34,437 nt of DNA from Seison nebaliae (GCA_023231475.1 JALJEE010000072.1:1-34437), one strand, 5' to 3'; positions 1,462 to 34,437 are shown, numbered from the stretch's first letter. Notes: generated from the sequence alone by a model not told the origin. Made by a program: numbers and translations.

Positions 1462-2400
1462 CTAATTTTGATGGAGGAGGAACCGTTTAATTGTTGATTC
1501 AACATCATTTCTAGATGTTTGTATAACTAAATTTTAAAGAAAAAATTGTAGAGTTGTAGAATAAATTAAATTTATAACTTGGACTCGCAGTCATCTTTTT
1601 CAAATCAATTTTCTTTAAAATTTCTATAGTTTCCAAATTATCTGTGATTCCTTTACCAATTACGGAAATAAGTTCGTCATTGTTGTTATTTCCAACAAAT
1701 AAGGCAGCATTCACATTCTTTAAATCAAGAACGAATACGAATGAAATACTAAATGTTGATCCGTTTTTACTTTCCGGGAAACAATTTCCACTTGTTGCTT
1801 CTATTATACTGTTACTAATCGAAATTGCTAATGATATTTCAAGGTTTTTTTTATTTTCATTGCAACGTTGAATATCATCGAAAAATACGTGTATTGTTGT
1901 TTGCAGAATTCCAACATCTTTATTCATTTTCAGTGCACGTTTTTCACTTTCCCCAATTTCTTCAATTCTTTAGGAATCAAAATATTAAATAGAATAAATG
2001 TAAAATAATTACTTTGAAGTACTCTCTGTTATGTTGGGGAGAGTGGTAGTAATCGTTATGTTTGTAGTACTGGTGGTGGATACAGTTACAGTTGTTGAAG
2101 TAATTGTAGTTGTGGTAGGTTCCGTATCGCTATTAGGCATAGCTATTTTATTACAATTTTATTAACATCTGTTACTGGATATGTTAATTGAAAATATAAC
2201 TTGTAACAACTATTAGGGAGAGTCCGGAAATAATGCCAACTATTAGGACCACTGACAAAATTCCAATAATAATCGGATTGATCGCTGCCTTACGATTTTC
2301 ATTCTGATTATTTCCATGTCTAAAAAAATTAATATAATGTTAAATGTTAAAATTTAAACTTTTGAATATCTAAAAAGTTTGCCATTATTAGTTGGTGCAT
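1462..2400 (-). CDS. Type II membrane protein with Thr-rich mucin-like stalk and possible SEA-like C-terminal domain; 5 exons (2400-2360, 2319-2201, 2142-2013, 1967-1579, 1526-1462)
   Basis: Phase-consistent introns of 40, 58, 45 and 52 nt. The product has a TM segment (PIIIGILSVVLIVGIISGLSLIVV), then TTTTITSTTVTVSTTSTTNITITTT, then ORF 1511-1927. Confidence 0.65.
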
Positions 2401-2489
2401 TATACTATTTCTCACACACTTTTATATCAAATTTTTACAAGAGAATCTTAGTGTAGCTACTGAGATATTCATCAATAGTAGTAGATCAT

Positions 2490-3600
2490 ATGATTTATCT
2501 TAACTGAACAACCTTCATAATCATTTTGATTCAATTATTTATTCATCTCATTATTGAAGTTCCATCGACAATCTAAACAATTTTTAATTTTTTCTATTAA
2601 ATATTTCAAGTTCATATATTCCCTATTGTCTTATTATAATTGGTTTATTCAACCAGTAATTGTTTTAATTTAATGAGAAAAGATTTCTTCTCAAAAGAGA
2701 TAATTATTGCATTTTATTATATCACTCATAAAGATAACTCATTTTAGATAGATTTTATGATTCTTTTACTGATATAATACCAGTAATTATATTTATAATA
2801 TATTCAAAATATAAGATTAATATAATGAACATTTATTCTCTTATTACAACCACCTACCTAATTCATATGATTATGAATCATAAATTTTGTCAAGCCAAAT
2901 AACTCAGAAAATAAGTTAAACTCATCTAATTGCTCAATGGGTCTCACTTCACCAATAAAACATACTGAGTTTTGTTGAATAAGATATTTGGCCTTATTAA
3001 ATTGAGCTTCCAAAGATATAGAAACAAAAGAACTTTCAGTAGAATTTACGAATCCTTGCATAGTGAGAATCTTCGTTATTGAGTCTTTATTCAATAGACC
3101 TCTCTCTACAATATCTTTTTACTAGAGTTTATTATTATAGAGTTTATTCTATCCTACAAATATATAGCATGTGCCGAAAATAAGCAAATGAATAAGCCTG
3201 GCTCATATTTTGGTTTATCTGTTGTTTATTTTCCATTCCAAATGATGTCTAGGTTCGAGCCAAAGTATGAACCATGGATTGTATTCACCGTTCTATGATT
3301 AATTTAGAGGAAGATTTGAGCATAATCTGTAGGATATACAAAAATTCATACGCAACAGAAATACTCTGTAAGTATACACTTTCTTTTATACAGTTACATC
3401 AACACATTAAGGATAGTAGTAGCCTAGGTAAAAAAATTAACAATCTTCCACCTTAAATATATTGGACATATATTGGCATATTTCGGCGTAGCATGCACTA
3501 TTTTTTGTTCATATTATTCGAAAGAAATAATAAGAGCATTCGATGAAACTTTCAAATACAGGTTTTTAAAACATACTATTTCATATGAAACGAGACAAAC
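2490..3600 (+). pseudogene. Possible decayed multi-pass membrane protein / GPCR-like pseudogene
   Basis: Stop-interrupted hydrophobic segments on +. The 3' part reads ...SVSIHFLLYSYINTLRIVVA*VKKLTIFHLKYIGHILAYFGVACTIFCSYYSKEIIRAF, resembling TM6-TM7-helix 8 of class A GPCRs. Confidence 0.25.
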
Positions 3601-3680
3601 GAATTTTTTTTTAATTTTTTATTTCCTTTATCTTACAGGAATTCTTCCTATAAAAAAGATTTATTTTTATGCCTGTTACG

Positions 3681-8697: not shown

Positions 8698-9210
8698 ATG
8701 AATGGAATGGGAATTTACGGAATTTTAGCCAATCAATTTGCATTGTTCGGTATGTTGCAGTTGGCAATCGGTTTTATCATTCAACTCTGTTTTTCCAATA
8801 AATTTTTTTCAATTTTTCATTTGATTATTGGCGTTATTATCTTCATTTTGGAATATTGTACGAGTGTAGTCGATGGGATTCCCAATTCATTCAACGAATA
8901 TCGTCAAAGATATTTGGAAAGATATTTTTATGAATATTTATGGAAGTACAATACATTCCTCCTATATCAAATAAAATATCGACCATTCATTTATTTAATT
9001 TTATCTGTTCCATTCTTCTTTTTCATCAGTGCTGCACTCGTTCCAGTCACACTTATCTTATCATCTGTCTTTTACTTCATCTCCACAATTCTTATGAATG
9101 AAACTTTCATTTCAAATTATCAACATCAATTAGATCGCAAATCCCAACAACAACAACAACAGTATATTATATCTACTCCATCGAAAGCTCCGGAAAGGAT
9201 AATCATTTAA
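8698..9210 (+). CDS. CYBA: p22phox (cytochrome b-245 light chain)-like NADPH oxidase subunit, divergent, intronless
   Basis: Motif order matches p22phox: AN..AL, ILEY, Q.Y, R..IYLILSVP, S..Y....E, and a remnant of the Pro-rich region (TPSKAPER). 170 aa with multiple TM segments. Confidence 0.7.
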   Translation: MNGMGIYGILANQFALFGMLQLAIGFIIQLCFSNKFFSIFHLIIGVIIFILEYCTSVVDGIPNSFNEYRQRYLERYFYEYLWKYNTFLLYQIKYRPFIYLILSVPFFFFISAALVPVTLILSSVFYFISTILMNETFISNYQHQLDRKSQQQQQQYIISTPSKAPERIII

Positions 9211-9374
9211 GTGAATTGCAAACTGAAATTTTTTTACGTAAATTTCTCATACATTTATTTTCGTAATTCAATTGAAAAATTCTTTACATTTTATTTTATA
9301 TATTAGATTCGTCTCCGATTTCTTACATTTTAGTTGTAGGGAAATTTGTATATGGAAATAGATTGAGAAGAACT

Positions 9375-12142
9375 ATGAAGTTTGCCGAACATCTGGGAAC
9401 TCATTTAACCCCCGAATGGCGTTCCCAATATATTCGATATGATGTTGGTATTTTCAATAAATATAAATTGAATTAGAAATGTTGAAGGATATGAAAGAAA
9501 TATTTTATGCTGCTGAGAAAGCTGCTCCAATCTCAGCTGACGGTTATTATTTGGATTAAAAAAAGTGATTTCTCATCTTTATTATTTAGCGGACGAAGAT
9601 GCTTATTTGAAACATATGTTCTATATGGAATATGATGAGAAATTTTTTGCATTTTGTGAGAAGGAATTGGCGAAAATAAATGCATTCTTTTCCGGTTATT
9701 ATTTTTTGAATTTAAAAGAAGAAAAAAGTAAATTTGTTTTTAGAGAAATTAGCAGAAGCAATTAGACGATTGATGATATTAAAATCAGAATTGCAGAAAG
9801 TGCATGAAGCACAAGAACGAAAATCGATCGAAAGAAAATCGAGAAGACAATCGTTCGCTTCAGAGTCAGCTCTAGATAAAAATGAAGGAAGTAGTGGAAG
9901 AGAGGAATCGAATGGATTATTTCGACGTGTCCAATTTCAAAGAGATGTTGTGGAAAAAGATGAAATTCAAATAAGAAAACTGAATAAATTGAAAATAAGA
10001 AAATTGAAAGATATGAAATTTGCCTTCAGCGAATTCTATTTATCATTAGTTCTCCTCCAGAAATATCAGTTACTGAATTTCACAGGATTCCGAAAAATTT
10101 TAAAAAAACATGACAAAATCTTCATTACTGATCGAGGAGCTGAATGGCGAGAGAAATATGTGGACACATCAAAATTTCATATATCAAATGAAGTTAATCG
10201 ACTGATTACTGAAGTGGAGAATATTTATATTAATCAATTGGAAGATGGTGATAGAGCTAAAGCAATGAAACGTTTACGTGTTCCTCCATTGGAAGAGAAA
10301 CAAAATCCGATATGTCTCTTCCGTGTTGGCTTCTATGCAGGAATTGTTATGGTAGGAATTCCATTGTTAATTTTGGTAGCAATATTCGTTGAGAGACATG
10401 AAGAGATCCGTTCAGCTCTCATCATTTATCGTGGATGTTTCGTTTTAATTTTGATGTTATTATTAATTGGTTTAAATACTTATGGATGGAGGAAGGCTGG
10501 TGTGAATCATGTTCTCATATTTGAAATCGATCCAAGACATCATCTCACTCAAACACAATTATGCGAAGTTATTTTTAATTTTTGTTGTTGTTATTGTTGT
10601 TGAATTGTTTGATATTAGTTATCTCTTTTATTGATGATCGGTTGGATGGGAAGTTTATTATTATTCTTATGGTCAGATCGATTGAATTTACAACGAGATA
10701 TTCATCCATTGGCTTTCATTATTCTTATGATTCTTTTCTTAATCAATCCGATTCATATCTTTTATCGTAAATCACGTTATTGGCTATTGAATATCATTGT
10801 TAGTATTAATAATGATAGAATTTGAAAAATTTATATATTCTTCTTTTAGAAACGAATTTTTGCTGCTCCATTTTATCCGGTGAAGTTTGCTGACTTTTGG
10901 TTAGCTGATCAAATGAATTCGTTGGTGAGCGTATTTGTCGATTTCCAATTTTTCGTCTGTTTCTATTCCATCGAAGTTTCCTGGCTCTCATCCTCCTCAT
11001 CCAGTTTGAAATATTTTTATTCTCTATTTAATGTTTAATCCATTGAAAGGTACTGGAAAATGTTCGGGAATTGTTTATGGAATAAAATCCATTTTTCAAT
11101 GTCTGCCAGCATGGTTTCGATTTGCCCAATGTCTCCGTCGTTATTATGATACGAAGCAAGCATTTCCACATTTGGTGAATGCTGGGAAATATTCGACAAC
11201 ATTTCTTGTTATTCTCATGTCATCGATTCTTACGGAAACTAGCAGTTCATAATTTCTTTCATATCGAATTATTTTCAAATTTTAATTTTTGAAGAAGATA
11301 GTGATCATTCGAGACGTAATGCTGCACTCTATCTATTAATTATAGCGAGAATCGTTTCCTCAATTTATACTTATACATGGGACGTGAAAATGGATTGGGG
11401 ATTATTAGATACTAATCAGAAAGATAACACATTCTTACGAGAACAAATCGTGTACGAATATAAATCATATTATTATATTTCGATAGTGGGCGATTTGATT
11501 CTTCGCTTCTCGTGGATAAGCCAAATGCCTTTCTACTTCCTCTCATATAACTATATGAACAAAGATGTACTTGATACAATTCTTATATTATTAGAAGTGA
11601 CCAGGTATGTTCTATTTATCTTTTCATTAGAAATATGATGGTTAAAAAAGTGAGTTTGGTTGAAGGATAAAATTTAAATTATCTCCCAATATACTCCTCT
11701 CTTAATTTAATTGGAAAATTTTATTATCTAAAATGAGGTTTGTCCATAAACTGTTTCTTCAACATTTAACTCAAATTTCATGTCCATCGGACAATGTTTG
11801 TCGTTTTGGATATGTTAATTGATTGTCGATGAACTTGAGACCAGTGACACAACCTTTTCAGATATTAAATTTTTTCTACTACCATCTCGATAATCACTAC
11901 GTATATATGTAACTATAAGAATCAATAAAATAATTTTTATTTTCTTCTAATTCTAAAGGAGATTCGTATGGAATTTCTTTCGGTTGGAGAACGAACATCT
12001 CAACAATTGTGGTATGTTCCGAGCAGTACGAGACATTTCCATTATGCCAATTAAAGAAGGTGAAGATATCAATTTTGAGGATGAGCATGATAATGAACAA
12101 GCAGCACCTAATCCTCCGTCGTCAACAGAAATGGATGTTTGA
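9375..12142 (+). CDS. XPR1: SPX-EXS phosphate exporter XPR1; 9 exons (9375-9443, 9488-9542, 9590-9694, 9744-10567, 10619-10798, 10850-11003, 11050-11244, 11295-11604, 11959-12142)
   Basis: [110 protein letters not shown]. All junctions are in phase. Confidence 0.97.
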
Positions 12143-13332
12143 TCGAACTAATTTGTTGATTGATTTATTAAGTCGAATTCTTCCCAATAATTCACAGCAG
12201 ATTCGAATGAACATTTCTTTTTTCTAAAGATGCGAGTGAACCTGATTCAGTTTCGATAATAGTTTCGTTGTTTTATAAAATTTTTAATTGTGAAAAAAAT
12301 GACACTTCAAATTAACAATTGATTTAATGTTATTGATAGCATCTTTACCATTGCTTGCTCCTTTCAAACTGAACGACTAAATATAATAAAGTTTTGTTAT
12401 GTCGTTCAGTATTTTTTTTCTACTTTCGTCTGACTCGAAGGTTTCGAATTGAGAAGTGTCGTTTGTGTAAGAGATATGAATGAATGATTACGATTAATTA
12501 ATTAGCATATTATTTAATTAGTAAATGTAAGCAAATTCAATTGCATGAAACTCATATCAGTATGAATAATTAGATTAGAATAATTCAATAGACCGGAAGA
12601 AATTCGTAAGAAGTAAAAAGAATCGATGAAAATTCATTCGAGAATTCTCTGATAGTTGAACATCGAAGAGTTCAAGGAAACTGAAATAGATCTGTAGTAA
12701 CTATCTCTCCCAATTTATCTTTACAGTAGTAGATCCGTAGGAGATAAATTAGTATGTTTGGGAAGGGAAAAAGAAAACCGGATGAATAATTAAGAAATTT
12801 GTTAAGATATGATAGAGTTTAATTGAAATGAGATAGAAACTAATTTGAGAAATTGATATAGTCGAATAAGAAATTGATTATTAATGAAACTACTTCAGTG
12901 AACGTTTAATGAATCACATTAATCATACGACAAAGGAAATTTTGAAAATTTTCATCTGTTTTCATTTCTCTTCGCTTCTACTACTATCTCTTTATCATCA
13001 TCTTCAAATTAATGGATTGATCGATTTATTAATTATCGCTCGAAATTATTTGATATTGTGATATGTTGTAGGAAATGAAAAGAAGAATTGATTTTAATAG
13101 CATTATTAAATATTTTCTTTTTTTGTTAATAATCACAATGCCATTTATAACCAGCATAGATAATGAAATCAACTAAACTAATTTATATCTTTCTCCCATT
13201 TTTTGTCATACAATATTGTACGATATTCTAACATCTGATGTGTTTATTTGAATTCTGTTAGATTTAACGTTTGATCTTTTATTTTAGTGGATTTACAATC
13301 GCCATCAAATTTCCTTTATATCCTCCTTCATT

Positions 13333-14429
13333 ATGGCCACATTAACCCTGTCACGAGGTATGTTTAAACCGGATGAATGGTCATCAAATAGAAATCGAGA
13401 AATTAGTCGTTTGTACCCTCTAATGTACAGTTAGTAATTTTATCTAAAAAATTTTAGATTTCTCATTCCCGCCATAAGATGTTATGATTCTTATTATTTA
13501 TTTTAGAAAGTTTTAGTTAAAATTAATAAAATTAAAAATTTGTTTTAAGAAAAAGACCAAACAGATAAGAATTACACATAATTTTCGGCTTTGATGATAA
13601 GTTAAAAAGTGTTTTAATGACTCTACTCATATTGATGATTGAGAATGATGACATCATTCATATAATTATACAAATATATCTCCCAAAACTTAAATTAGCC
13701 TTCATTTATTACTTTATGAATATTTTATCAATGAACAATATCAATCATCTAATACATCGGAAGTCGATGTCGTCTCAACATCGATGAATTATAAGAACTT
13801 TTTGTAACAACAAATCATTTATCTAACAATTCGTAATTCTCTAAATTTCATTGAACGAATATTAGCGATGCTCTTGTCTATTGATTGTGTATCAGGTAGC
13901 GAGATATCCAGATATTATCACGTAACAACATTTAGATTAATTTAAAAATTTTTTGTTTTCCAATAGATCGAGAACCTAGAAGGCGACAAGAAACTTATGT
14001 GAAGATCGACCGATTGTTAGGAGAAGAATTATTGAAAACCAGAAGACGTCAGAGATTCGGTCAATCTAAACAATTAGTGAAACCATCACAACGATATGCC
14101 ACGTTCAACAATCATCCTCCTTCAAAGAAGAGACAATTGAATAGAGAACGAAGACCCAACTCAATCAAACGAACTAAATCGACAATGACTTACATGAATA
14201 ATCAATTGCCACAATCTTATTATTATTATTATGATTATGGAACTGGTCAATACGTCTACTATCCATATATGGTCAACCAGAATCCAATCAATCAAACTCA
14301 AATAATACAAAATTCACAATCTGCTCCCATCAATTTCCTCGGTCAACAATCCACCCAACTACCTTCACATTCGATTTCTACTGTTCAACAACCCACATTA
14401 TTATCCCAACAACCAACACATCAACCCCT

Positions 14430-14460
<31 letters not shown>

Positions 14461-16068
14461 ACACAACAAATAGGAGGAACAACAATTGCAAATTTACAAT
14501 CTTTATTTCAATCAAAATTACCACTACAAGGACAACAACAACCAATTAGACCAAATCTACATCGAAATCCAAAGCCACAACGTCATTTTAGTACAATCAA
14601 TCAACAGCCGACAATATATCGAAATACTTTTGGAAGTGTACCTTGGAATGATGAAAGGAATAAAGATTTTAATCAAAATTATGATGATTGGAATTATGAT
14701 CACCCGACAATTACACAACCAAAATTATCGAATAGTTACGCAACTCTGAAGAAAGTTATAAAGAGTAATTCTCCATTCTCCTCATCGATCAAAGATGTAT
14801 CGCCCTTATTAGATAATGGAGTAAAATATGCATCATTAAATAAACGACAAAAGACTCCTAAACATTCTTCCACTGTTATCAATGTGGAATCATTCTCTAA
14901 ATTGCCTCCTAAAAATTCGTTATATGGGAAAGGTGTGATCGAAGATGGGAATGATGATATTAATTATGTTATGGATAGTATTCATCGAATAAGTTTCCAA
15001 AATAATAATGAAACGAATAAAGAAACGAATTTTTATGATCGAGTTTATTCGACTGCTTATGGAACATTAAAGAAAATGAAGAGGCCAACAATCTTTGATA
15101 TCTTCCCTCGAAATTCGTTAAAACATTCGAAAACCGAATTAAATTTAGATCAAAGAGAAAACGGATTAAAATGTATTGCTCGACAAATTATCAGGAATCG
15201 TTCTCATGAAAATGATGTAATTTCGTCTATCAGTGATTCGAACAAGAATCGAAAGAAGAAACGACGTTTAGCTTATTTTAGTATTGATCGAAATAAGAAA
15301 AATGTTTCCGGTTCTTCTTTCAATCCATCCACTTCGACTATTATGGAAGAAGATCTTTCGAAATTAATCGATTCCCAAGATAACACAAATAATTCTAATG
15401 AGAACTACGAGCAAAATTTCAATATGAACAACAAACAAAATCAATTTGATACAAATTTCTTATCAAATCAATACACTAATTCCTCTTTTTATTCGAATAA
15501 TACAATTCGTCAAATTCCAATTAACAACTCTGTGTCAACTCCTTCATCTCCGATTATCGCAAAATCGGAAGCCGATATCAAAAAAGAAAAGGAAGTCATC
15601 AAGGAACGTATTAGGCAATCGGTTATGAAAATATTTGATCTGAAAGATTTCTACGAATGTAATGACATGAAATTCATCATTCGAGAAATCGAAGAAATGA
15701 TTCAAGAATTCCGCATTAATCGCAGTCGAAATAATTCCATTAGTCGAGGAACGCTACCCGATTTAGGTAATGCTTGTAGAACAAGTAACTTATGTTCTCT
15801 TAATTCCATGTCTCTCGTTTGTTGTCGACGTGTGTTAATGTCACTCGGTGTGGCCGAACCAATAGTGACAGAAATTATTCATTCACTGACACTCATCAAA
15901 TTGATGGAAAAGAAATCAGGTTCTTTTATTATTTCTAATCAAAATCGAAAGTTTAAAAAAATTTCATTTTCAGATTCAACCGTGCGAGAAAATCGTCTAA
16001 CATCAGCAGAATTAATACAATTTCTAATGGTGACACAATTTATCGACCGTCCACCACCAAATCCATAG
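13333..16068 (+). CDS. Orphan Gln/Asn-rich low-complexity protein with helical C-terminal domain; candidate first exon from ATG 13333 spliced to acceptor 13966; probable 54-nt intron 15920-15973
   Basis: 689-aa ORF 13999-16068, open back to the TAG acceptor at 13966 (phase 1). Two phase-1 donors follow ATG 13333 (13358 GTATGT, 13430 GTTAGT). The 5' end is uncertain. Confidence 0.7.
14431..14460 (+). repeat. (CAA)10 microsatellite encoding poly-Gln
   Basis: Read directly from the sequence. Confidence 0.95.
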
Positions 16069-16920
16069 ACTATTTTTCTTTTTCATTTTCATTCCAATCT
16101 ACTTTTCTCTCTTTATGAACACTTTAATACAATTGTTCAGTTTCAATCCGTTCCCAAAAAAGAAGAAAACCATCAACATCGACTGAATACAGAAAATTAT
16201 TACTATCCTTCTTTTTTCCACTTAATAAACTTTTTATTATTGAAAACACTTTTCTTTTTCTCCAAAAATTTCCCCAGAAAATATAGTCATCCATCGGACA
16301 GATTAGAAGTGTCGTGGTCAATTTATTTTACTGGAAAACTAATTTAAAAAAGAATTTGAATAAAACTGAAAATTTATCAAAAAATTATTTTGGTTGAGAT
16401 TAAAATCTGTACATGTGGAATAATGAAAAGATTTTGAATGAAATTGAAAATAAAATAAAAGTAGAACTGTTCAAATGATGATTGTAAGATTTTTGTGAAA
16501 TGAACTGAGAAATAATAAGCAGACTATGCAGAAAAACGAATGTTAAACTTGAAAATTGTAGAAATAAAATATTTTGTGGAATGGAAAAACTTGAAGATGA
16601 GAAATCGTAATAATAAACGTAAAAAAGAAACTGAAGATTCGGATGAAAAAATAAAATATGAAGAAATAATAAACTGTAAAATAGTGAAAAAATAATAATG
16701 AAAATGTAGAGGTAAGTAGTGCAGAAGAGAGAAGTATAATTGTTCGGAAATGAGAAAAGTATTAGAAATCAGAAAAAGGAATGTTCTTTCCTTTTCTTAT
16801 TCTGGGAAGAAAATGGAGAATAAATAGAATAAATTAAATGAAAGAAAATTGAGAGAATCGAAGATATTCTTCAAGTTATTATTCGAGTTCCATCATCAAC
16901 TGATGCAAACCGACAATCTA

Positions 16921-19713
16921 TTAATCTTTGGATAATTGTTGAACTTTCAAAAAGATTTTCGGATTGTTTCCATTTGTCAACGATAAAGTTGTTGATGTTG
17001 GTCTATTCTTCGTTTGTATTGGAATGGATTCATTTGAATTTGACATATGAATAGACTCGGAAGAAATGGAAGAATCCATATGTTTCCCAACAGAAATTCC
17101 TCTTAATAGTGGATCATCATCTTTGGGAAGGAGAATTTCATGAAATTCTAAAGACAACGGAGTACAATCATTCATATCATAAGATCCATCTTCTGACGGT
17201 TTCCCGAAAAAGAAATTCTCCATCGAAACTGGAATATGTCGATCATTTTCATTTGAAATAAATCTGGGCTTAATCACCGTTTGAGATTGTAATATATCGT
17301 CGTTCTGAAGAGGATGAATAATATCATTCAAATTGGATTGGAATTGGAATGAATGATCGCCACCAAAACAGAATTCACTTGATGATAAATCGGTTGCAGA
17401 TCGACATGATTCGACTTTATTACAAGACGATATACAATTGACAAATTCAGATGATCCAGAATCGTAATCGGAATATTGTTTACCAGTCGACAGATTAGAA
17501 TTAAGTGACAAAGATGAATTAGATGTATAAAAAGATTGAAGATTTGAGAAGACGTCGTTCGATTTAGAATGATATAACGATTCGAGAACGTATGGTGCCA
17601 ATGTTGAAGTGGAGATGGTTGGTGAAGTAATGATTGAACCATTCGACGGTGATGTAGTGACAATAGTTCGAGGAATGATATTACAAAGTAATTCATTTGA
17701 ATTTGAAATTAAATAAGGATGTGTTGAGATATTTGTATCAGATGTGGAAGTGGATGAAAATATATTTGATGAAGATAAATTATTATTAATATCGTTATTC
17801 ATATTCTTATGATTATTATCCATATTCGTATTATTATTAATCATTTTACCCGATCCACGATTGTTGTTATTATTCATCATCAAATTATCATTATGATTAG
17901 AGCGAATTATCGGATCTGAATAATATGTCTGTTTTGTGAAATGATCAATATCTCCATCATTATTCCAATAATTTGTTATGCTACTACTAATAGTAGGAGG
18001 GATAGATGGAACATGTAAATTGTCCCGATTCATTTCAACTAAATTTTCATTTGAACGAGTCTCTCCATTCGAATATTGTTCATCCGTCAATTGTTGTCCT
18101 ACTGGTACTGACGTTTGATTATTCGATGAAAATTTATTTAAAGAATTCTCCTCAATATTCTTGTTGGTCTTCTTGATGAGATCCAACATCTCTCGAGATT
18201 GACCATAAAAATTCTTTTGAAACAAAACATTAATTGGAGGAAGTAATGATGACATTCCAGGATCTTTCTGGAATTGCTGAGTGAGTGCACATGCCTCATA
18301 ATTATTCACAGTCGATTGAGCACTAACTGATGGAAATTGAACTGCTAAATTACATTTTAATGTATTTCCATTCACCCCTTCTTGACCGTTAGAAGAAATA
18401 ACGGTTGATTTGGATCGACATCTCTTCTTGACAGGAGTCTCATTACCATTCTGATGAGTTGCACCACCAAAATTCTCATTATTCTTCTGTTCATTCCCAT
18501 ATGTCACATAAATGTTACTACAATTGTTGTTGCAATTGTTTGGTAAGTTCTGAACAACATCGAATGAATTAGATTTAAATAAAGTTCGATTCTCATAACG
18601 ATTCTCATCATTCTTTCCACCACCACTACCACCACCTTTCTTTGTTTTATTCAATTTCGTCTTCTTTCCACCTTTATTATTTCCATCAATTATCGCCACA
18701 GGCGTTCGTGTTACTAAAGTGATAGCATTACCATTAACAACATGATTATTCATCGTATTCACATCATACGAATAACAAGTACGTGGTTGAGCTGAAGTTG
18801 TGGAAGATCTTGTGGGACGTGAAACTGCTGATATTTGCATCATCGGAATCGTATCATAAAGAGGTGGTCTCAATCGAATTTCCATCGGAATATTCTCCAA
18901 CAATCTCACTGGAGGAACGATACTTTCCAACTGATCTTTCGTCTTATTATAATTCCGTTTTCGAACGGTAGAATTCCAATGATTCTTTACTCCATTATCA
19001 GTTCTAATCAAATTGAGAATTAGAAGAATAATAATTAATTTAAACCTTCCTGGAATATATTTTGCAATTTCTGCCCATCGATTTCCCAAACGTCGATGTA
19101 AATAAACAATCGCATCATTCTCCTCTTCAGTCCAAGGATCTTTATTGATATCAGGACATAAATGATTATGCCATCTGGAGAATTATCAAATAATTCATTG
19201 TGAATTAAGAATAATGATGAAAAATAAACCGTTCTCGACATTGCTTCCCAACTCGACCTTCTAAATATTTTGCGATATTTGACCAATTTCTAGGTCCGAA
19301 TCTATTCACTAATCGTACCATTAACTCATCCTCCTATAAGGAAGAAAGAAATGATGAGAATACATTTCAAATAATTGAACTTGTTTCGACCATGGTCCTT
19401 TGATGCAACGCTGTTTATTCACTTGTTTCCATTGTTGTTCACATTCCTCCGGTGTTACATTAGTTCCCATATATGAAGAAATGGCAATCCATTTGTTAGT
19501 GCCAAATTGTGTCACCAACTGTCGGAGAATCATCAACTATCAATGGAAATTGAATAAGAATAATAAAAAGAATATGATAAATGAAATAACTTCTCGACTC
19601 GTCCAAATGTGAGATGATTCAACATTTGTTTGCTTTTGATGCAAATTAGTGATAAGTTCACTTTTCACCTTCTCTGGTGAAATGATGGAAGACGATCTTT
19701 TTGGATTTCTCAT
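16921..19713 (-). CDS. MYB: Three-repeat (R1R2R3) Myb transcription factor; 5 exons (19713-19591, 19536-19381, 19333-19230, 19174-19046, 19003-16921)
   Basis: WTSRE..W....W (R1), KGPWSKQEDEL...[30 protein letters not shown] (R2), WTEEE...[27 protein letters not shown] (R3). Introns of 54, 47, 55 and 42 nt. Confidence 0.93.
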
Positions 19714-20330
19714 TTTATAACTGACTATGAAGAATTTGAAACGAGATAATTTCAAATTTGAATTTATAGTGAGAATGGAAATAAAAATAAAGTGATTGAA
19801 GAAAAGAAGGAAAACTTGATTAAGTTTTGAGATGAATACTCATCCACAGGAGAGTAACGACTTTAAAAGAGTATACGTGTAATTATTGATTGGAAGTGGA
19901 AGAGATGTGAATTTGGAATTAATAAAATTTTCTTAATTTGGATAATATTGAAATTGAAGAACAGAAGAAATTGACGAATATTTATAGATCTCTATATACA
20001 CGCAAGAGATAGGATTGATGCAAATAGCAGTAAATATGAATAACCGTTAACTTCTTCTATTCGATCCCATCTTACTCTCTTGCACCCATCATTCTCGATA
20101 GACTAACAGACAAAAATGATGTCATCAGCTTATCGTCACTTATCGGTGGACAGCTTAACTTTGAAACATTTCCAACTTTTCAAATTTTTTCTTCTTTTAT
20201 CACCATTTTCTCATGTTTTCCGATGCTTCCCTTTCTTCTCTCATCATTCTCCAGTGACAACCTTATGTCATTCTTAAACTATTGATCTATTCCTCTCCAA
20301 ATGTATAGAATAGAGATTTTTCTCCATCTC

Positions 20331-20344
20331 GTTGTCATGGCGAC
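20331..20344 (+). promoter_or_regulatory. RFX X-box upstream of BBS7
   Basis: GTTGTCATGGCGAC fits the X-box consensus (GTNNYY-AT-RRNRAC), 73 bp before the ATG of a ciliary BBSome gene. Confidence 0.8.
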
Positions 20345-20416
20345 GTATAATATTTATTTTTATTTTCTAAAAAATTTTTTTTATAAAATTTCTTCAATCT
20401 TCTATTGGCAAGTTTC

Positions 20417-23018
20417 ATGGAGAACGAATTGTCTCGAATTGATTGTTTTCAATCGAATGGAATTAATAAGAATTGTATGAAAATTTTCAAAGGTAAGAAA
20501 GATGAGAAAATCTGTTATGCTGACAAGGATGGTCTCATCTCATTCTATCAATTGAATACAGGAACTTTGCAAGTTCGTTTCAACTTTTTACTAAAGTTTA
20601 AGAAATTTTTGAAAACAGAAATCATGGGAAGTAAATATTGGAGAAAGTGTGGAATGTATTCGTCTTATCAGAAAGAACGGAGAGTCGTTGATGGATCGAT
20701 TTTTTGTATTAACTCAAAAGAATATTTGTGGATTCTCGAAAAAAGGCAAAACATTTTTCCAACTATCACTCCCATCAACCATTCAAGAAGTAAAGGATTT
20801 GTTTGAACAAACTCTGTTTAAAAAAAATAATCATTCCCTTTTTTTAAGTATAATTGTGGATGCATTCATTCATGTTCTCAGTCAAACTACTTACTATTTG
20901 TATGAAGGAGCAGAATCCATAAACAAATTATCTATTAGTAGTGGTGCAAATGCATTAATCGATCTTTCTCCTTCTCACATATTAGTCGTCACTGATTCTC
21001 GTTCAATCGTTTTAATCGAAGTTTTATATTTTACTGATAATTTTTAAATGACAATTTATTATAGAACGGAGAGTTGTTGGATGAAATTGATTTCCAATCA
21101 GGAACAATTGTAAAATTGGTTAAATGTAAATCATTCCGAAACAATCCGAACGATTTGATTTTTGTTACGAATGAAGGTATTTTTGGATTTTGCACATTTC
21201 ACCTGTTATTATACTTATAAAAAAACTGAAATTTCAAATGTTTATTTGTGAAGGAATGAAAAGATTTGTCAAATTCATTGGACAATTGAGAACGATCGGA
21301 ATAACTTTAATTCCTCAATCACTTCTCTAGTCGTATTTGATATAACTGGAGATGGAATTGATGATATAATTGTTGGTCGATCAAATGGAAATGTTCACGT
21401 TTTCTGTTTCCCTTCCGATGATACAACATCGCAACCCCTTCAACAATATAATTATGTTAATTCCATTTATTTTTGTTATTCATTAAAATTTCTTTTCTTT
21501 TCATGCAAAGATCGGAAATGAAAGTGTTGGATCATTAGATTGTGGTAGAATAAGGAATAATAATTTGGATGAAATTATTGTAACAACACAACAAGGATGG
21601 ACATTCTCTCTTACCATACGTGACGAATCAGTAACGAATTCATTTGGTTCCAATTTAGAAAGAATTAATCAATTACAGTTCACATTTGAAACAATTTTTT
21701 TCATCTTTATTGCTAATTTACAGGAGAGATGTAGAAAATTTGGAAGTAGAATTAAAACATAAAAAATCGATATATTATTCGCAATGTAAGAAAGAAAACG
21801 CCATGGCTGCATTACCTTCATTCCGTATAACATCAACAATGGAATTAAAAGAATCGACTGCTTCGTATGTCCTAGAAGTTAAAATTTCTTCCAATATTTT
21901 AATATATTAATCGGTTACTTACTAATGTTCCAGATCGAATGTGAACATACAATTGATCTAATATTGTTACAATCAGATGTACCCATTGATGTACTAAATC
22001 GAGATACAAACGCTGCTGTTATCAGTTTTAGTGATTTGTCAGATTCAGTTAATATTTTAAATTTTCCATTTTTTAATCAATTTTAAAGGAGGAAAATCAT
22101 TTGTTGGCAACTTATCGATGCCAAATGAACACGAATCGAATTGAAATTACGATAAGAACTGTTGAAGGTCAAATTGGTGACTTGACTTGTTATGTTACTC
22201 CGAAAATTGTACCAAAAGTTTGTCGCACTGTAGCATGGAAAATACTTCCATTATCTCTACATGCACCGAGATCAAATGTTGACAGAAGTTCTTTAGAGTT
22301 GAAAGAACTGCATTCTTTAACATTCGAAGGACAATTTAGTATTCAACAACCACATTCTTGGCTGTTACTTATTCTACCAAAATTAACTACTAATACTCCC
22401 CAAAATTCGACTCAACTTGTCCACTACATCAACACATTTCTTCAAACTCATCTTTATATTCAATTTAAGTTTCTTTTGTTTGTGTTTTAGTTCGATTTGA
22501 TTGATTTCTAATATAAAAGTGAAAATAAATTGGAATTCTTCTCCGACAATATTTCCACAATAACAATCTTGAAAGATGCTGTTAGTCGTCAAGCAACTTT
22601 GGCATCAGTTAAATTGAAAATAAATTTTCACATATCTCAAATCGCCTTGGAAAAAACTTTGGAGAAAGTTCATCCATTATTGCAACATCAGAAGGATTTG
22701 TTGAGGAAGAAACAGATGATTGAACCGATTCGAGAAATTATTCAACATGAACGAATTGAACGTCCGGAAGTTAAAGCGGAAGAATGTCTATCAAAACAAT
22801 TCCTCCATCTTTATCAACATTCCGATGAAGTAGAAGAAGAAGCAGAACGATCACCATCACATCTTCAACGACTTTTTGGAATGATTACTGATCTTTACAT
22901 CGATCAACATAAGATGCATGGAACAAACGTTAAAAGTCGAATCAATGAACTTAATTCAATTTTAGAAAATTATTCATTCGATCAATTATTATCATTCTTT
23001 CTTTCAACTTCTACCTAA
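20417..23018 (+). CDS. BBS7: Bardet-Biedl syndrome 7 protein; 10 exons (20417-20572, 20619-20800, 20849-21020, 21065-21204, 21254-21455, 21511-21677, 21724-21877, 21934-22047, 22089-22468, 22520-23018)
   Basis: LSRIDCFQ, GFSKKGKTF, FDITGDGIDDIIVGRSNG, LLQSDVPID, LATYRCQMNTNRIEITIRTVEGQIG, FFSDNISTITILKD, LQRLFGMITDLYID. All junctions are in phase. Confidence 0.95.
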
Positions 23019-23383
23019 TAATCAAAAGAACAGTTTACATGTATTTTAATGAAATGATAAGAATGATGAGAATAATTATTTCCGTTGATCAAAAACAAGA
23101 AACAGAACATGAAATTGAAAACAAAAAATTATTGATATTTATTTGTGATTCTCTTCGCAATGATTATAATTTTGTCGTTTCGTTTTTTCATGGAAATAAT
23201 TATTTTTGTTGTCTCCATTTCTTGTGAAATTTTAACAAAATCGAACTGAATATATTTGAAGTTGTTTCATGGGAAGCATTGGAAGAATGAATTATTGCCA
23301 ATTGATGAATAGTTTCTCTTATTCATCATTTCAAATAAAAATTTACACATAAAATTTTATCGACAATATTGTTTAACAAAATA

Positions 23384-23419
23384 ATGATGATGATGGTGGT
23401 GATGATGATGATGATGATG
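23384..23419. repeat. Imperfect (ATG/GTG)n trinucleotide microsatellite between the convergent BBS7 and CK1 3' ends
   Basis: atgatgatgatggtggtgatgatgatgatgatgatg. Confidence 0.9.
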
Positions 23420-23822
23420 TTGAATCCATAAGTATCCAATAAATATCAGTTTTTTCTTTTGTATTCTACAAAATTCATGTTGTCGATAAAGAGGAAGATA
23501 AGACGAGAAATTAGATAATTATCATTCTTACAATTTTCATAAATTTTTTTAATGATTATTCATAAGAAACTATAGAAATAGCAGAAAAATAATGTGATGT
23601 GAAAAATTAATTTTTTTTAAATTTTTAGAAATTTAATGTTCAACAAATTATCAGTTCGTGTGATATAATAAAGAATAAGAAAAAGGAGAGCGAGAAATAG
23701 AAAAGAATAAAATTTATCCATGATTCTTATTTGTCACTGAATTCTATTCATGGCAATGGAGACGTAAAATGAGGAAATTAAAAATTGATAAAATTCGTTT
23801 TGTTCAATAAGTTAAATGAATA

Positions 23823-25120
23823 TTAACCTGCACTCGCTTCTCTGGTGAAGACGGCCGTTCCATTGCCTTCACCATTCGTTGTACCATTGGATTGGAAGTG
23901 ATTAACATCATTCGACTTATTTCCCTAATAATAAATAAGAAATAAATAAGGAAAGTGAAAACTAACAAATCTGATGAGATTCCAGTCAAACATATAATCG
24001 TAAGTGAATCCTTTACGAGCAAAGAGATTCTTGAATAACGTTTGTAAATATAAATAATTTGGTGTTCCTTCGAAACTTAACGATCGACAATATTGGAGAT
24101 AAAGTGAAAATTCACCTAAAATTAAAGATGAATATTTTTTACTTTTTTATAAGAAACTAACTGGGATATCCTTCACACAGATCACTGACATGAGTATTCG
24201 CTTTCTTTTCACTAATCTTCTCATACTTTTGTCGTTTCGTCGCCGCTTTCAATCCTTGCCATGGAAGACTTCCTCGATTAAAATACATGAGAACATATCC
24301 CAACGATTCTAAGTCATCTCGACGAGATTGCTCTAAACAGAAATTGAGTTTTTTTTATTCCATAATTATTTTCACTTGAAATTCCTCTAACCAATTCCAC
24401 TATGTGTATTAATCGATGCATATCTTGCTGTTCCAGTTAAATTTTTATTTTCTTTATATGGAATATGTCTTTGGCGACCATCCCGATATTTTTTCGCTAG
24501 ACCAAAATCAATAATATATACCAGATTACCTGAATTCATTAATTTCTTATAAAATTACAAAATTGTCAATGAATATTTAACCTCGTCTTCCAAGTCCCAT
24601 CAGGAAATTATCTGGTTTAATATCGCGATGGATGAAATTTTTACTATGAATATAATCGATTCGACTAATCTTGATTTATACGAATAATAATAATATATTT
24701 AAAAAAATTGATGATTTATAGAAGAATAAAAGAAAACCATTTGATGTGCAAGTAATAAGACAGTTTTTAAATGAAATTTTCGATTGCAGAAATTGAATAA
24801 ATCTTCCAAACATGGACCTAATAATTCCATGACCATTACATTATAATCTCCTTCACTTCCACACCATTTCAAATTAGATATTCCAATGCCACCTATGGAA
24901 ATCATAGGAAACGGAAAAGAAGAAGAGAAAAAATGAAACCTTTCATTTGTCTATAGATTTTCGCTTCGATATGTAACTGAGGATGTTTTGTTCGTACACA
25001 TTCCAATTTGATAGCGACTTCTTCATTCTTCGTAGTATCCGTTCCTAAATAAATATCACCAAATGATCCAGATCCGATTTTCCGTCCGATACGGTAACGA
25101 TTGCCCACTCTCAATTCCAT
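23823..25120 (-). CDS. CSNK1D: Casein kinase 1, delta/epsilon type; 7 exons (25120-24940, 24892-24738, 24669-24582, 24529-24392, 24332-24162, 24115-23967, 23924-23823)
   Basis: [94 protein letters not shown]. The end of the last exon is uncertain. Confidence 0.96.
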
Positions 25121-28007
25121 GACGATTGGAGAGGATGCAAATCTGTGAATGACAATATAAATATGACGATAAAATAAATGGAATTTGGAAGAGTAGAAAT
25201 AAATTTAGTAAAAATCAAATTAAATTAAGAATAAGTACTTTAATCGTTTACCGACCAATTAATGAGTAACGTAGAGTAATTTAAATTTAATCGTATTTAA
25301 GATCAAGAAACGAAATCGTGTTTACATAATACTTATTGAAACTATTAAGAGAACGTACAATCATCGTTGTTCAGACAAATGAAACACAAACAGTCCAAAC
25401 ACTAACAACAATTAGAAGAGACATTTTTATTTCCCATTGGAAAAGAAAGAGAAGATCGAAGAACAATTATTAAAAATAATGTATTTCATAATGGATGTGG
25501 GAGAACGAATTAACTCCCGGAATTTCCTTTCACATATTTATTTCCTTATTCAATCAACTAAACATAATAACACATTCAAAATTGAATGTTGTTGTTGTTG
25601 ATTCAAAGCTAAAAGTTTCCATTAATTCATTATCTCACAACTTAATGATTTTCAGAGAATTAATTTACTTCATAATTTAATATTCAGTAACTTTATCAAC
25701 AAAAGATCAGCTTTTATTTCTGGACTAAATGAAATTATTTTTCTAATCAATTTCTATAATCATCCATTATTGATCATTCTATCACCTGCAGAGGAAGAAG
25801 AAACACTACTTCCAAATTAAGCTTTCTCTCACATATTCATTCATTTATCGTATGAGTAGTACGTACGAGAAACAATTATCGGACTTTCACATACGTATTG
25901 ACAAATAATTTGCTTGTTTCCCATGTACGTAATTAATAGTTATTAGTAGGAAAATTGATCACAAAACGAATCGTAATAAGTTTAATAAATTTATTATGAC
26001 TCACCTGAACCTCGAGGAAATATTTGTTTTTATTTGATATTGTTTCCTCCCAAAAAAATCAAAGAATGCCAATTGGACTTTCCAAACAATTCTCTGTGTT
26101 CGATAACTAAATTATTCCTTTCACTTCTTTACGATTGTGTTTTTATTTTCCTTTCAGAATACATAAACAATAGTATGAATTTCATTCGGTTAATGTCAAA
26201 TTGTAAAATATTGCACAATAAAACAATTATACATTAAATATTATAGTTCTGAAGTAAAGATTATAGGAAAAGAGTAATTTCCTATAATATAGTAGTATAT
26301 ATAATATAACAGATCATCATAATACATCAAATAGTCTTATAATCAAATTGGAAAAAATTATATTAGAAAAAGAAATTATTTGGAATATAATTATATCAAT
26401 TTAAAAGAATAATAGATAATTGTATGAAGATAATCCGACGAATAAGCAAGCTAATAGTATTAATTTATCCTTCCACTATTTGTCTGCTTCAGATCATTTT
26501 ACTTTTTTTTTAATTTCCCACTAAATTAACTTTCAATTTTTATTGATTATTTTGTCTTTTTAAGAATTAACAAACATTAACTCAATGTGATTAATAATGA
26601 TTTTATTTTAATTTATTTAGTCAAATTTCAGTTTGCAATCATTTATATAATCATCGATATAATAAGATATATTGAGTATAAGCGATGAACGATTAATATA
26701 TGACAGATATGTTAACGAACATTCTCACAGTCTTATTGTTGAATATAAATAAATTGTAATTCTAGTTTCGTAATTCGACCACATTCGTATTTCATTCGAG
26801 AAGGACGAAATGTATGAAGACTAAAATAGTATAGAAATGCTTTAATGAAATTTTGCGCTAGAATTCATTTAGAACTAGCAGTCCCTGCGGCATAAGAGAT
26901 AATATGGATAATATAATCACTATCAAATAAAATTTTCTTCATTTGGACTCAAATATGCCCTTTGTCCTTTAATGTGTTTGGATAGAAATAATTGAAGGCT
27001 AATGAAATCATGCAATCGTCCTAGTTGACGGAATAAACCGATAGAATTAAATATCTGTCTCTCTTGTTCCAATCTAATCACTAGATTATTACATGCGAAA
27101 ATAATAGAATGGCATGATATTACAGATTCTCTACATGAATTTTTTATATCATTTTGATAAGTTTAGTAGTAGAGGAAATAGAGTGAATGTTAAACGAAGA
27201 AAACTCACCTAACTTTCATATGATATTCCAATTGGTTTGAAATAGAGTTTGATAGGAGATGTATTGTCGAATTCGGAGCTTAACTAAAAGTGGTCTAAAT
27301 GAAGATGATATTTTTGTATTCATATTTTTCCTCAAAATTATAAACCGAGTATTTATTAAGGACATTGTAATATGAAGATGGTTGAGTGTGTATTTGTGCG
27401 AATAGAAAAAATGTTCAAGAATTCTCTTCTTTTAACTTTTCTTTACATTCTTTTGTTAATTTGACTCCTAATTATTCTTGAAAATATCTCATCTACTCAA
27501 CTTTCCATATTCTAATATGTTATTCCTGAGAATTTCGGATAGAATATATTATAAGAATTATTTATCGATTAAACATTATTCAACTAGATGAACTTTCACT
27601 GTTAGCACACAACATAGTATTCGATTAGGTGTTTCACATCTGGGAATATCGATGAAGAAATTGATTATTTCACTTCCACGTATATGTGTAGGAAATTGAA
27701 GGTAGAGGAATAGTGAAGAGAACACTAGAAAAGAACCAGCTGTTGATATTCATTCATATAACATTTATCAATTTAAATTTGCACAAAAAGATTTTTAAAA
27801 TAAATAAAATTCATTTAGAAATTCGTTTTGCGATAAATAGTGAAGATTTCCTTCCGTGAAATCTCCCGTTGAGTTGGAAAGAAATAAATTTGCTTTTGGA
27901 CAATTTTTAACGACAATTCGAATCATGCCAAAGTGAAAAAAGAACATTTAATTTTACTTTTTCGACATTCTATGTCGATTTCATTTATTATGAAACATCA
28001 TTGAACA

Positions 28008-31000
28008 ATGAGTACACTTAGTTATCGATCGATATCATTAGATTCAATTCTAACATTGACGAATGATAATCAATTTGAAAGTTTTAAGAAGAAATATCTA
28101 AAGGAGAAATTGGATAACTTGAACAAGAATTTCCATGGAAGATCTAGAAGAAAGATGGATGGATTTGTTTTCTTGAACGATCATAAATTATCTGATCAGA
28201 ACAAGAAGAAACTGTTCAATGATCTTGATGTCAACTGTAATAACAGTAATTGTGAAGAGAATGATTGTGACAATTCGTCTCAATCTCAATCGCTTTCACA
28301 AGATACCATCTTTTCAAATTCACTCAATGACGATGAAACGGATAATTCATTTTGTAATGAAAGACCAACGAGTGATTCATTTCTTGATCGGAAAGATGTT
28401 TCTCCTCCCAATAACGTGTTCGTCGAGCGGAAAGATTTAAACAAATCGATGACGAGTAGTAATGAGAAATCTTATCCACCTAAAAAGAAACGAGCGAATG
28501 CTTGGTATAATGTTAGATAAAGTTGTTCCTCTCACATAATTCCACATTTCTCTCAGGCTTTCAATCCAACATATAAACAAAAGAATACTGAATTCCATAA
28601 ACTATTCAAATCAATCCCTTCAAAAGAAACACTTCTAGTCGGTTCGACTATTCTTAAAAATCATAATTATCTAAATTCTCCTTAACTTAAACTTTTTTAG
28701 ATTATTCTTGTGCGTTACAAAAAGACATTTTACTACACGGTCGTCTCTATGTAACAAATGCAACAATTTGTTTCTACTGCAATCTATTTGGATGGGAAAC
28801 AAACGTCTCTTTTTCTTCTTCTACTCCATATTCTAATTCTCCCATAGATTTGTATTCCAATAAAAAATGTGGACAATATTACAAAAGAGAAAACTGCAAA
28901 ATTCATTCCAAACGCCATTCAAGTTTTTCTTGTTTTTTCATAAAACACGAAAATTTCTTTTAACCTTCTTAAAATCAGATTGTTTTGAAAACAAAAGAAA
29001 AATATTTTTTTACCAGTTTCACTTCACGAGAGAAGACATTTGTCATGTTGTTTCGCATCTGGCAAAATTTCTTACTAAAAAAAGTTTTTTTTTCTTTCAA
29101 TAATCTTCATCTTGAATGTTTGGATTGTAAAAAAAACTTATATGAATTTTTTTTACAATTTCTTCTCTTTGTTCAAACTTGTATGGATTCGTTATTCTAT
29201 TCTTCTTTTTCATTCTGGGAAAATGTTGTTGAGAATAGATTAGTATTCTCCAAGAGGTAAATCGATGTTGTTTCTCTTTACTTCCATGAGGAGAATGTAG
29301 TTTCCTTCATATTTTTTTCTTTTGATGTTTTTCTTTCTGCTTTCAGAAGATGCATCTTCATGTCAAATTTAGATCAATAATTTGAGTTTTTTTTTAAGTT
29401 CATTTTTTTGTTTGGTGATGAAAAGGATTTCACGTATTTTTCTTTCTTCCTCACTATTTTTTCTAATCAGGAAGAGTTAATTATTTTTCTTCTCTAGCCC
29501 ATGTCACATGACGAATTGTTAACTTTATTGAAGTTACATTATGGGGATCAGATAGACAAAGATTCAATTAGTACAATATGGAATTTTGAAAGCGAAGATT
29601 CTCCATCAGACACTGATGGTTCTTTTCTGTCTGAGAAGAAAAAGTTAACATTCTCTATAATCTTTAAATAATATTTTATAATATAATTAAAGTGGCACAG
29701 AAAATAAATTGAACGAGAAGAAGAGAATAGTTTTGTCGAAGAAGAAACAAGTAATTGTTCAGAATTTGGATGATTTAAATGTGAATCAGAATTCTTTATT
29801 TTCTTCTTCAATTAAACACCAATTGAAAAATGAAGATAATCAGAGAGTTCTGAAGAAAGGTGATTTACCAAATAATCTCTTTTTACAAGTCCCACAAAAA
29901 AAAGAGAAATTTGATGGGGATTCATCGGATTATCAGAAAAGAATTCCAAAAAGAGTTAAATCGGAAATTATCCTTAAAAAACGATCATCTGACATTAATC
30001 CATTGAATGAAAGTTGTTCATTTAACAATCGAATACTTTCTTCAACGAAGCCATATGTCGCTAAGCCAATAGACCAATTATGTAAGATGGTATGTGAAAA
30101 TGAAGAATCGAAATTGGATTCGGGTTCATATCAATTGATGGAAAGTTTAAATTTATTTGAAAAAAAAAAAAAGAAATATTATATTTAAAAATTTAGAAAA
30201 AATGGCAGGTAATTCGTTTGAGGAATTGGAGAATAATGTTCATTGTGATTGTGATGATCATTTACCGATCAGTTATTTGGATGAAATATTTGAAATCGAA
30301 TTAGAACATTTGTTCAAATACGTCGCATTAAATTCGACATTTTTTCGCGAATATTGCAAATCGACAGGAAGATCGAATGTCACTTATACTAAATGGCATA
30401 GACATCGACAGAAAGAACCTTCATCATCTGAAGTGTCATCTGAACCTTTCGATCAGACATGTAATGACAGTGGAGTAACAAAGACATTTAATGTATCAGA
30501 TTCTGGTGAAGAAATTAATGAGAAGAAGATTCAATCGATAATTGATGATGATGATTTGTATAGAACTGATTCGTCTGATCTCGAATCGATTACTCCACAT
30601 CATAAGGAGAAGAATGAAGAGATGAAGAAACATTTATGTCAAATGACATCAATTCCATCATATGTATCTCATGTTCGTATTTTGAGTTATGTTATTTCTA
30701 TTCGAGCAATTATGGTTAAACGTGTTACCACCACAGACGTACAAGTTCAATATTTGATAATGATTTATTTTAACATAATTTAATTTTAGTATATTCATAA
30801 AAAATCGAAAAAAAATCATCGATATATTATCGATTCGAAAGCCACATCTGCTGGAGTGTTATATGCGGATTGTTTTTGTGTATCATCCAGATTCTGTCTA
30901 ACGAGAATCGATAATCATCGTTCTCGATTAAGAATCACAGGTGATATTGAACCTATAAAATCTATGACAAATATGGTATTGAATTTCGCCAAGAACGATA

Positions 31001-31738
31001 TTCGAACTCGAGTTCATGCTAATTTCGAAAAATTGAAGAATGTTCTGCTTTCCATATTCATTTCCTTTATAACCTGATTGACATTCATAGAATTTGTTGG
31101 AAGAAGCGAAAAAGAATCGGAAGATGTTGATGACTGTCATTCCTGAATGTAATAAAAGTACAAAATCTGTTTTTTCATCAGATGATGAACAGGAAGATGA
31201 TGATGATGGAAATGATAGTGATTATGAAAATTTGAAAAGTACGAAAAATGATAGCATGAAAAAAGATCTCAATCATCGAAGGAAACCGATTGAAGGAACT
31301 TTATTCACCACTTCCAAGACACAATCAGGAGGAACAAGTGGAAATATGATAAGAAGTCGATTGAATAGTCGAAGAAAATATCGACAAATTGATGATGAAT
31401 ATGATAGAAAACATAGAAATGACAATTTTGAGAATAATACAATTTCTTTCGATGGAATATCAAGTTGTCTTTTCTATCATCATTCCTTCTCTACTTATTC
31501 ATCCCATTAGATATCAACATAACTTTAGGAAATTATTCCATTAAAATGTCAAGTATTATTTTAATTATAACATTCTTGTTAGTATATTCTCAACAACTAC
31601 AGATTTAATTTATATTATTTAATTATTAATTATCAATCAAATAGATTACTTGCAATGATTCTCATTAATATCGTTCTTTATTACAAACTCTACAAAGTGG
31701 AACAAATGGCCGAAGAAATGGCGAAGAGGAGACTCTAA
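28008..31738 (+). CDS. GRAMD1: GRAM-VASt-TM sterol transfer protein GRAMD1/Aster; 12 exons (28008-28511, 28557-28641, 28701-28804, 28848-28922, 28979-29083, 29498-29618, 29701-30144, 30197-30744, 30790-31041, 31091-31463, 31511-31577, 31645-31738)
   Basis: WYNAFNPTYKQKN.EFHKLF, DYSCALQKDILLHGRLYV, KEKTAKFIPNAIQI, KYFFTSFTSREKTF, VASt motif AGVLYADCFCVSSRFCL..SRLRI, and C-terminal TM ILINIVLYYKL. Confidence 0.92.
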
Positions 31739-34197: not shown

Positions 34198-34437
34198 GTC
34201 AATAAAATTTGTGACGATCTAAACTAGAATAAGTTCGATAATTTCGAATAAACTTCATCTTGATCTACTTCGTCAAAAATTGTGTCAAAATAACGGAAAA
34301 CTGTGTTACATGCAAATTTCAAGTTTTTAATTCTGACGGAAGTTGTAAGTTTTAACTACTTTCTATTATTTTTTTACTTCTCTTGTTTTATTTTTTAATA
34401 CTAGTTATCCCCTCAATGGAAAATTTGTCTTATATTA

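Follow-up and report, generated by a model that had tools for sequence, protein, structure and literature searches.

Nearly all introns in five genes of the rotifer Seison nebaliae begin with GTT, suggesting a lineage-specific donor code

In five genes located on one contig of the rotifer Seison nebaliae (XPR1, a MYB-family gene, BBS7, casein kinase 1 or CK1, and GRAMD1), 36 of the 38 intron donors begin with GTT, one with GTC (28805) and one with GTA (11605). This observation, which is confirmed within that scope, reproduces from five gene models the tally given in an initial annotation of the same DNA, and the seven donors quoted there were all found in place. Sequence comparison with bdelloids and other animals marks the pattern, demonstrated here for five genes, as a genuine donor code specific to this animal lineage, and the GTT donors likely mean that the splicing machinery has altered its reading of intron starts.

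Results

Gene models and donor census

Seison is a rotifer found on the crustacean Nebalia, and the available text of its genome paper describes a genome of about 46 Mb with compact genes (PMC8351084). The window, that is, the whole stretch of 34,437 nucleotides that was analysed, contains three genes whose 28 introns were modelled from deposited Seison nebaliae proteins matched exactly. XPR1 (9375..12142, + strand), with an exon matching protein SNEBB_008008 at 100%, has eight introns, of which the seven GTT introns (9444-9487, 9543-9589, 9695-9743, 10568-10618, 10799-10849, 11004-11049 and 11245-11294) measure 44-51 nt and the eighth (11605-11958, 354 nt) is the sole GTA intron of the 38, with the donor CAG/GTATGT (here and below the slash marks the junction). 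BBS7 (20417..23019, +), whose exons match SNEBB_008011, has nine introns of 41-56 nt, each GTT, with donors at 20573, 20801, 21021, 21205, 21456, 21678, 21878, 22048 and 22469. GRAMD1/Aster (28008..31738, +), whose exons match SNEBB_008013, has eleven introns, ten of them GTT; these include a long one (29084..29497, 414 nt) with the weak donor AAA/GTTTTT, and the remaining intron (28805..28847, 43 nt) is the sole GTC case, its next-best junction scoring 35.6 bits lower. The sequence surrounding the later GRAMD1 introns is poorly conserved.

The other ten introns were modelled from open frames. Four, of 42-55 nt and each with a GTT donor, belong to the MYB-family gene (16921..19713, - strand; introns 19590-19537, 19380-19334, 19229-19175 and 19045-19004), whose model rests on its open spliced frame and on Myb Pfam matches in three exons. 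Six, of 42-68 nt and likewise each GTT, belong to CK1 (23823..25120, -; donors at 24939, 24737, 24581, 24391, 24161 and 23966), which is supported by CK1 homologues as well as by its open frame. Contigs assembled from the sequencing runs over 9000-28990 keep the introns, as expected of DNA; their depth over about 23700-28990 is far lower than elsewhere in the window, for which a filter may be the cause. An Rfam search of the window found nothing.

Intron length is tightly distributed, with 36 of the 38 introns at 41-68 nt and two long ones of 354 and 414 nt, the former being the one opened by the sole GTA donor. Among the 36 short introns, 35 are GTT and one is GTC, and none has a purine at +3. 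Like U2-type introns, all 38 run from GT to AG, and their excision restores conserved reading frames; the GTR start of the U2-type donor consensus is found in 1 of 38. Minor (U12-type) introns carry the long invariant donor GTATCCTT, which occurs in 0 of the 38. Intron density in these genes is 3.6 per kb of coding sequence.

A recount of the 38 introns bears out the scarcity of +5G (12/38) and the degeneracy of +4 (A16/C7/G2/T13) and +6 (A13/C4/G1/T20) noted in the initial annotation, and its claim of a nearly fixed +3U accompanied by little other donor information agrees with the per-position values: about 0.9 bit at +3, 0.45 at +5, 0.49 at -2, and less than 0.2 bit at each remaining position from -3 to +11 outside the GT. 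A trade-off between -1G and +5G is undetectable in the 36 short introns (counts 2, 7, 9 and 18; P 0.69), and no fixed branch-point position emerged across the introns.

Support for the junctions

When the three deposited proteins were mapped exactly, one GT-AG placement remained for each of the 28 introns. An annotation-free test also used profiles built from homologues outside Seison to score all frame-preserving GT/GC-AG options no more than 45 nt away; it took in the 34 introns of XPR1, BBS7, CK1 and GRAMD1, the BBS7 profile coming from a single homologue. The top score fell to the modelled junction in 31 of the 34. In the three others, all situated in GRAMD1 sequence of weak conservation, the best alternatives are also GTT and no GTA or GTG option is present. 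Of the 33 introns with a donor other than GTA, 5 had rival GTA/GTG junctions, none of which won, the closest coming within 1 bit (30739). Overall, 28 of 28 junctions match deposited proteins and 31 of 34 rank first against foreign profiles.

Further, a spliced aligner with no preference at +3 was run with non-Seison proteins. For XPR1 it recovered 8/8 donors with two of three foreign proteins and 7/8 with the third; for BBS7, 8/9 junctions with the Owenia protein, the ninth being placed at a different GTT; and for CK1, 6/6 and 5/6 donors with CK1 homologues. In the MYB-family gene, in-frame GTR rivals exist only at intron 19380, and these remove 5-17 residues.

Base composition and chance

T follows GT at 43% of the GT sites in the window, a frequency under which at least 36 GTT donors in 38 would arise with P 1.6e-11; with the T-richest background, that of intron interiors (64%), the corresponding P is 9e-6. 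The unused GTs lying 41-68 nt from the acceptors used here comprise 10 GTT, 8 GTC, 6 GTG and 5 GTA, and the contrast between these (10/29 GTT) and the used donors (35/36) is marked (Fisher P 2.6e-8). The true donor is the sole GTT at 41-68 nt from the acceptor in 26 of the 36 short introns.

Comparison with bdelloids and other animals

Bdelloid rotifers provide a matched control for the Seison donors, and bdelloids were the rotifer relatives sampled, next to other animals. XPR1 loci were fetched from metagenomes, of which 59 of 80 were aligned and 21 left unaligned. Among 19 bdelloid-like loci, 15 entered a quick tree, and all 15 grouped with named bdelloid proteins (SH-aLRT 100). Their distinct introns comprise 36 GTA, 1 GTG and 1 GTT (n=38); with locus L062, which the tree places among bdelloids and which contributes one GTA and one GTT, the tally becomes 37 GTA, 1 GTG and 2 GTT (n=40). 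The comparison with related taxa advised in the initial annotation, run here on XPR1, thus finds the +3U excess absent from bdelloids. Among bdelloid introns of at most 70 nt (gene GC 0.27-0.38), 2/31 are GTT, and the difference from the Seison short introns gives a Fisher P of 1.7e-15, to be read with the fact that the bdelloid rows are non-independent, stemming from few positions of a single gene family. The annotation's argument that AT-richness is insufficient to explain the bias is upheld by these introns, which are of like length and AT content and nearly all GTA.

In 40 XPR1 loci of other animals, 108 well-supported introns (82 low-support ones being excluded) comprise 63 GTA, 27 GTG, 13 GTT, 2 GTC and 3 GC. 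In Seison XPR1, the introns that follow residues 23, 76 and 411 occupy positions common to 11, 14 and 9 of these loci, respectively, where 33 of 34 donors are GTR; therefore, old donors have been converted in Seison. The position of the residue-527 intron is common to 5 other-animal loci and that of the GTA intron (11605) to 3, and the remaining Seison XPR1 introns are shared with 1-3 weakly supported loci. Taken together, the bdelloid GTA donors and the ancient positions mark the pattern as a lineage-specific conversion rather than as AT bias, a burst of introners or a shifted register.

Proposed pairing with U1 and the distance to the acceptor

The likeliest cause, in a reading that we hold tentatively, would be an altered U1 snRNA working with an intron-length ruler of about 41-68 bases. 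The spliceosome would assemble across the short intron starting from the acceptor, the machinery would search for a GT at 41-68 nt upstream, and U1 would pair at that GT in the normal register. The Seison U1 is predicted to carry A in place of the pseudouridine at position 6, and since this A6 would be the Watson-Crick partner of +3U, selection would retain T as the sole base at +3. Rare +3A donors could persist where other positions pair well, as in CAG/GTATGT, or through a retained ordinary U1 copy. We infer these steps (assembly across the intron, length search and A6 pairing) from sequence patterns. A broader proposal, offered with more reserve, is that the major spliceosome may have swapped a core U1/donor pair (A6/+3U) genome-wide, with thousands of ancient introns converted, the donor shrunk to hardly more than a GTT whose distance to the acceptor is measured, and perhaps a second, ordinary U1 serving the few GTR introns.

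Several features of the 36 short introns are consistent with pairing in the normal register, namely enrichment of -3C (10 introns, P 0.008), -2A (20, P 0.024), +5G (11, P 5e-6) and +8T (26, P 0.003), all P values being uncorrected. Further, +3C occurs in 1/36, although intron composition predicts that C makes up 20% of pyrimidines (P 0.003); this specificity for U suggests an A partner rather than G44 of U6, as G44 would pair with C at least equally. Among the 21 introns with a rival GT at the permitted distance, a pairing count using A6, which is partly circular, picks the true donor in 18, and the counts for other U1s are 14 (canonical), 14 (shifted), 15 (C6) and 12 (G6). Canonical-like donors in coding sequence number 7 against 19.9 expected in bdelloids (one gene family) and 10 against 10.5 expected in Seison at a 3-bit cut-off, a contrast that fades at higher cut-offs (Seison 2 against 4.5 expected at 4 bits). 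Of four cut-offs, only the lowest shows Seison-type sites to be depleted in Seison exons (38 against 48.8 expected).

Pairing strength leaves part of the choice unaccounted for. The canonical-type site AAG/GTAAGA (20490..20498, +; GT at 20493) lies in coding exon 1 of BBS7, 126 nt from the acceptor, and is absent from the deposited BBS7 splicing model; this site and the unused exonic CAG/GTAATT (30209) both have an A6 pairing score of 17, the median of true donors being 15. Many true donors pair very weakly with any U1, as does AAA/GTTTTT, and +3A is in actual use at 11605 and possibly at 2012, which likewise speaks against A6. Since such strong exonic sites are ignored, a U1 change alone would be insufficient and a tight length window must contribute much. 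The compensatory U1 suggested in the initial annotation is favoured indirectly, by the normal register, the preference for U over C and the canonical-like sites left unpurged in exons, whereas its U1-alone form leaves 20493 unexplained and needs the length constraint.

The numbering of U1 positions used here is the established one and agrees with the U1 genes fetched in this work. The U1 oligonucleotide in the accessible text of PMC4856993 agrees with it as well. A U1-like contig, one in each of 3 of 4 sequencing runs, covers positions 392-458 of the canonical bait, 5' arm included, and differs from it in 12 of 67 letters; its position 6 is unreadable and its origin possibly foreign, and no variant U1 came to light in these runs. 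With a depth of 0.38-0.54 of that of the window and an upstream flank of 60% GC, reached by 0.04% of the window's 30-mers, this contig may represent either the U1 of a different organism or an allele of Seison. Viral contigs gave no U1 match, and five bait genomes no U6 above the cut-off. Ten U1 snRNA genes located in contigs of bacterial bins represent eukaryotic contamination.

Long introns and neighbouring genes

The donor at 11605 is the best canonical one of the 38. Long introns may retain canonical donors. In favour of this are the donor at 11605 and the AG/GTRWGT sites, which number 5 in the window against 1.6 expected (3 of 100 shuffles), a pattern picked post hoc. Against it, a second pattern (5 against 2.6 expected) is not significant, the long intron at 29084 starts with GTT, so canonical donors are not obligatory in such introns, and the site at 13358 can be avoided, since the frame also stays open with GTT joins. 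Upstream of CK1, within 25143-27210 (-), there may be two long 5' UTR introns, with two AG/GTGAGT sites (25999..26006 and 27203-27210) as putative canonical donors and two T-rich sites resembling acceptors as their ends.

In genes without homologues, frame-forced introns start with GTT at 2200, 5053 and 5240, where the GT join is unique or nearly so, and have ambiguous donors at 4052, 1128 and 13358. A candidate 45-nt GTA intron (1968..2012, -), in which all 4 in-frame joins are GTA, lies in a putative gene whose exon there has no Pfam match and weak Atlas matches. The region containing it (1514-5585, -) harbors genes without Pfam matches, whose short frame-forced introns are mostly GTT; one of these genes combines a threonine-rich part with a hydrophobic segment. 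Elsewhere in the window, an apparently intronless gene lies just upstream of XPR1 (8698-9207, +; cytochrome b558 alpha or p22phox Pfam, E 4.8e-6). A long glutamine- and asparagine-rich ORF (13333-16068, +), with no Pfam or Atlas match, probably starts with a long intron whose end is at 13966 and may contain a GTT intron of 54 nt (15920-15973) that keeps the frame. A further long ORF, apparently intron-poor and with a serine-rich part, extends over about 32170-34200 (-).

Discussion

Alternative explanations

We consider it rather unlikely that U1 is canonical and that altered proteins (U1C, LUC7, TIA1/Nam8-like, SNRNP27 or PRP8), together with intron definition, choose a U-rich start, +3U being tolerated opposite pseudouridine. 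Donor information is very low and intron length tight, T is found at +8 in 26/36 and at +9 in 25/36 short introns, and the sole +3A donor is fully canonical, all of which such proteins could accommodate. As described in the available portions of the respective sources, human U1 tolerates U opposite pseudouridine, such contacts occurring in human sites (PMC4856993), and U1 is unaltered in several lineages with altered donors, namely Thecamonas, Micromonas and 69 yeasts, whose donors are atypical, mostly at +4 (10.1101/2022.06.08.495308). Tolerance, however, leaves unexplained both the 0/36 purines at +3 and the preference for U over C.

Selection by U6, with +3U forming a wobble with G44 of the ACAGA box, or G44 now being A, and U1 playing a minor part, seems to us improbable. 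The +3 base faces G44, with which purines interact weakly according to the accessible text of PMC11732430; +5G is retained; and AAG acceptors are somewhat common, at 11/38 in Seison against 5/40 in bdelloids (P 0.09, not significant; 4/38 without L062). Conversely, with an unaltered G44, C would be expected to be favoured no less than U, but it occupies +3 in 1/36 short introns; +4 and +6 are without enrichment; and Entamoeba, in the sections available, retains ACAGA and has altered its U1 instead (10.1101/2022.06.08.495308).

We judge very improbable an unaltered machinery in which mutation pressure, short introns or biased annotation yield the pattern, an explanation largely refuted by the present data. 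Intron interiors are 48% T and their GTs 64% GTT, the donor is the sole GT at the permitted distance in 15/36 short introns, and 7/29 short introns of other animals are GTT; however, bdelloid introns of equal length and similar composition are GTT in 2/31, unused GTA and GTG sites exist at the permitted distance, and an aligner with no preference at +3 gives the same junctions.

A U1 register shifted by one base at atypical human donors was reportedly described by Roca and Krainer in 2009. Scarcely credible for Seison is either such a +1 register, for which -1 purine (26/36) and +5 purine (23/36) could speak but with which +6G (1/36), +7T (17/36) and +8 purine (7/36) conflict, or a burst of one mobile intron family starting with GTT, given XPR1 positions common to other animals and a longest string of 12 bases common to two short introns. 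Shifted-register human introns also start with GUU but, in the available part of the source, require +6G and downstream pairing (PMC4856993), whereas Seison keeps +5G in the normal register.

Relation to known systems

The closest known counterpart of the Seison code appears, by analogy, to be that of Entamoeba, in which +3U is near-universal, as GUUUGU(U), in ordinary GT-AG introns and U1 reads ACAAAC opposite GUUUGU (Roy and Bowser, 10.1101/2022.06.08.495308). As far as the available sections go, Entamoeba is intron-poor and uses a strict hexamer (88-90% GUUUGU) with a co-evolved U1, unlike Seison, an intron-rich animal in which only +3 is fixed and +4 to +6 are degenerate. Fritillaria borealis is another animal lineage in which splice signals were altered genome-wide and spliceosome parts adapted, the Seison case being known from five genes; there, according to the accessible text, GT/AG ends were lost, U2AF was duplicated and m6A altered (PMC13326754), whereas in Seison GT-AG is intact and one internal base is flipped. 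Donor preference is also tied to snRNA pairing and helper proteins in the U5- and U6-class 5' splice sites and in METTL16/SNRNP27 effects, which, in the portion available, concern +4, +5 and -1 (PMC11732430), while Seison has no detectable -1G/+5G trade-off.

No earlier report of a GTT donor code in an animal was found in the literature on Seison introns, rotifer or bdelloid donors and metazoan GTT donors; subscription papers and bioRxiv supplements may hold one. In its available text, the Seison genome paper mentions splice sites once, in a methods sentence (PMC8351084), and its two supplements leave them unmentioned.

Few features of animal gene expression are as conserved as the pairing between U1 and the donor. 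The flip of +3 across the old introns of an intron-rich animal constitutes a natural experiment on the co-evolution of a shared recognition site and its thousands of targets, and the Seison case bears on the minimum of information that a donor requires when intron length is constrained.
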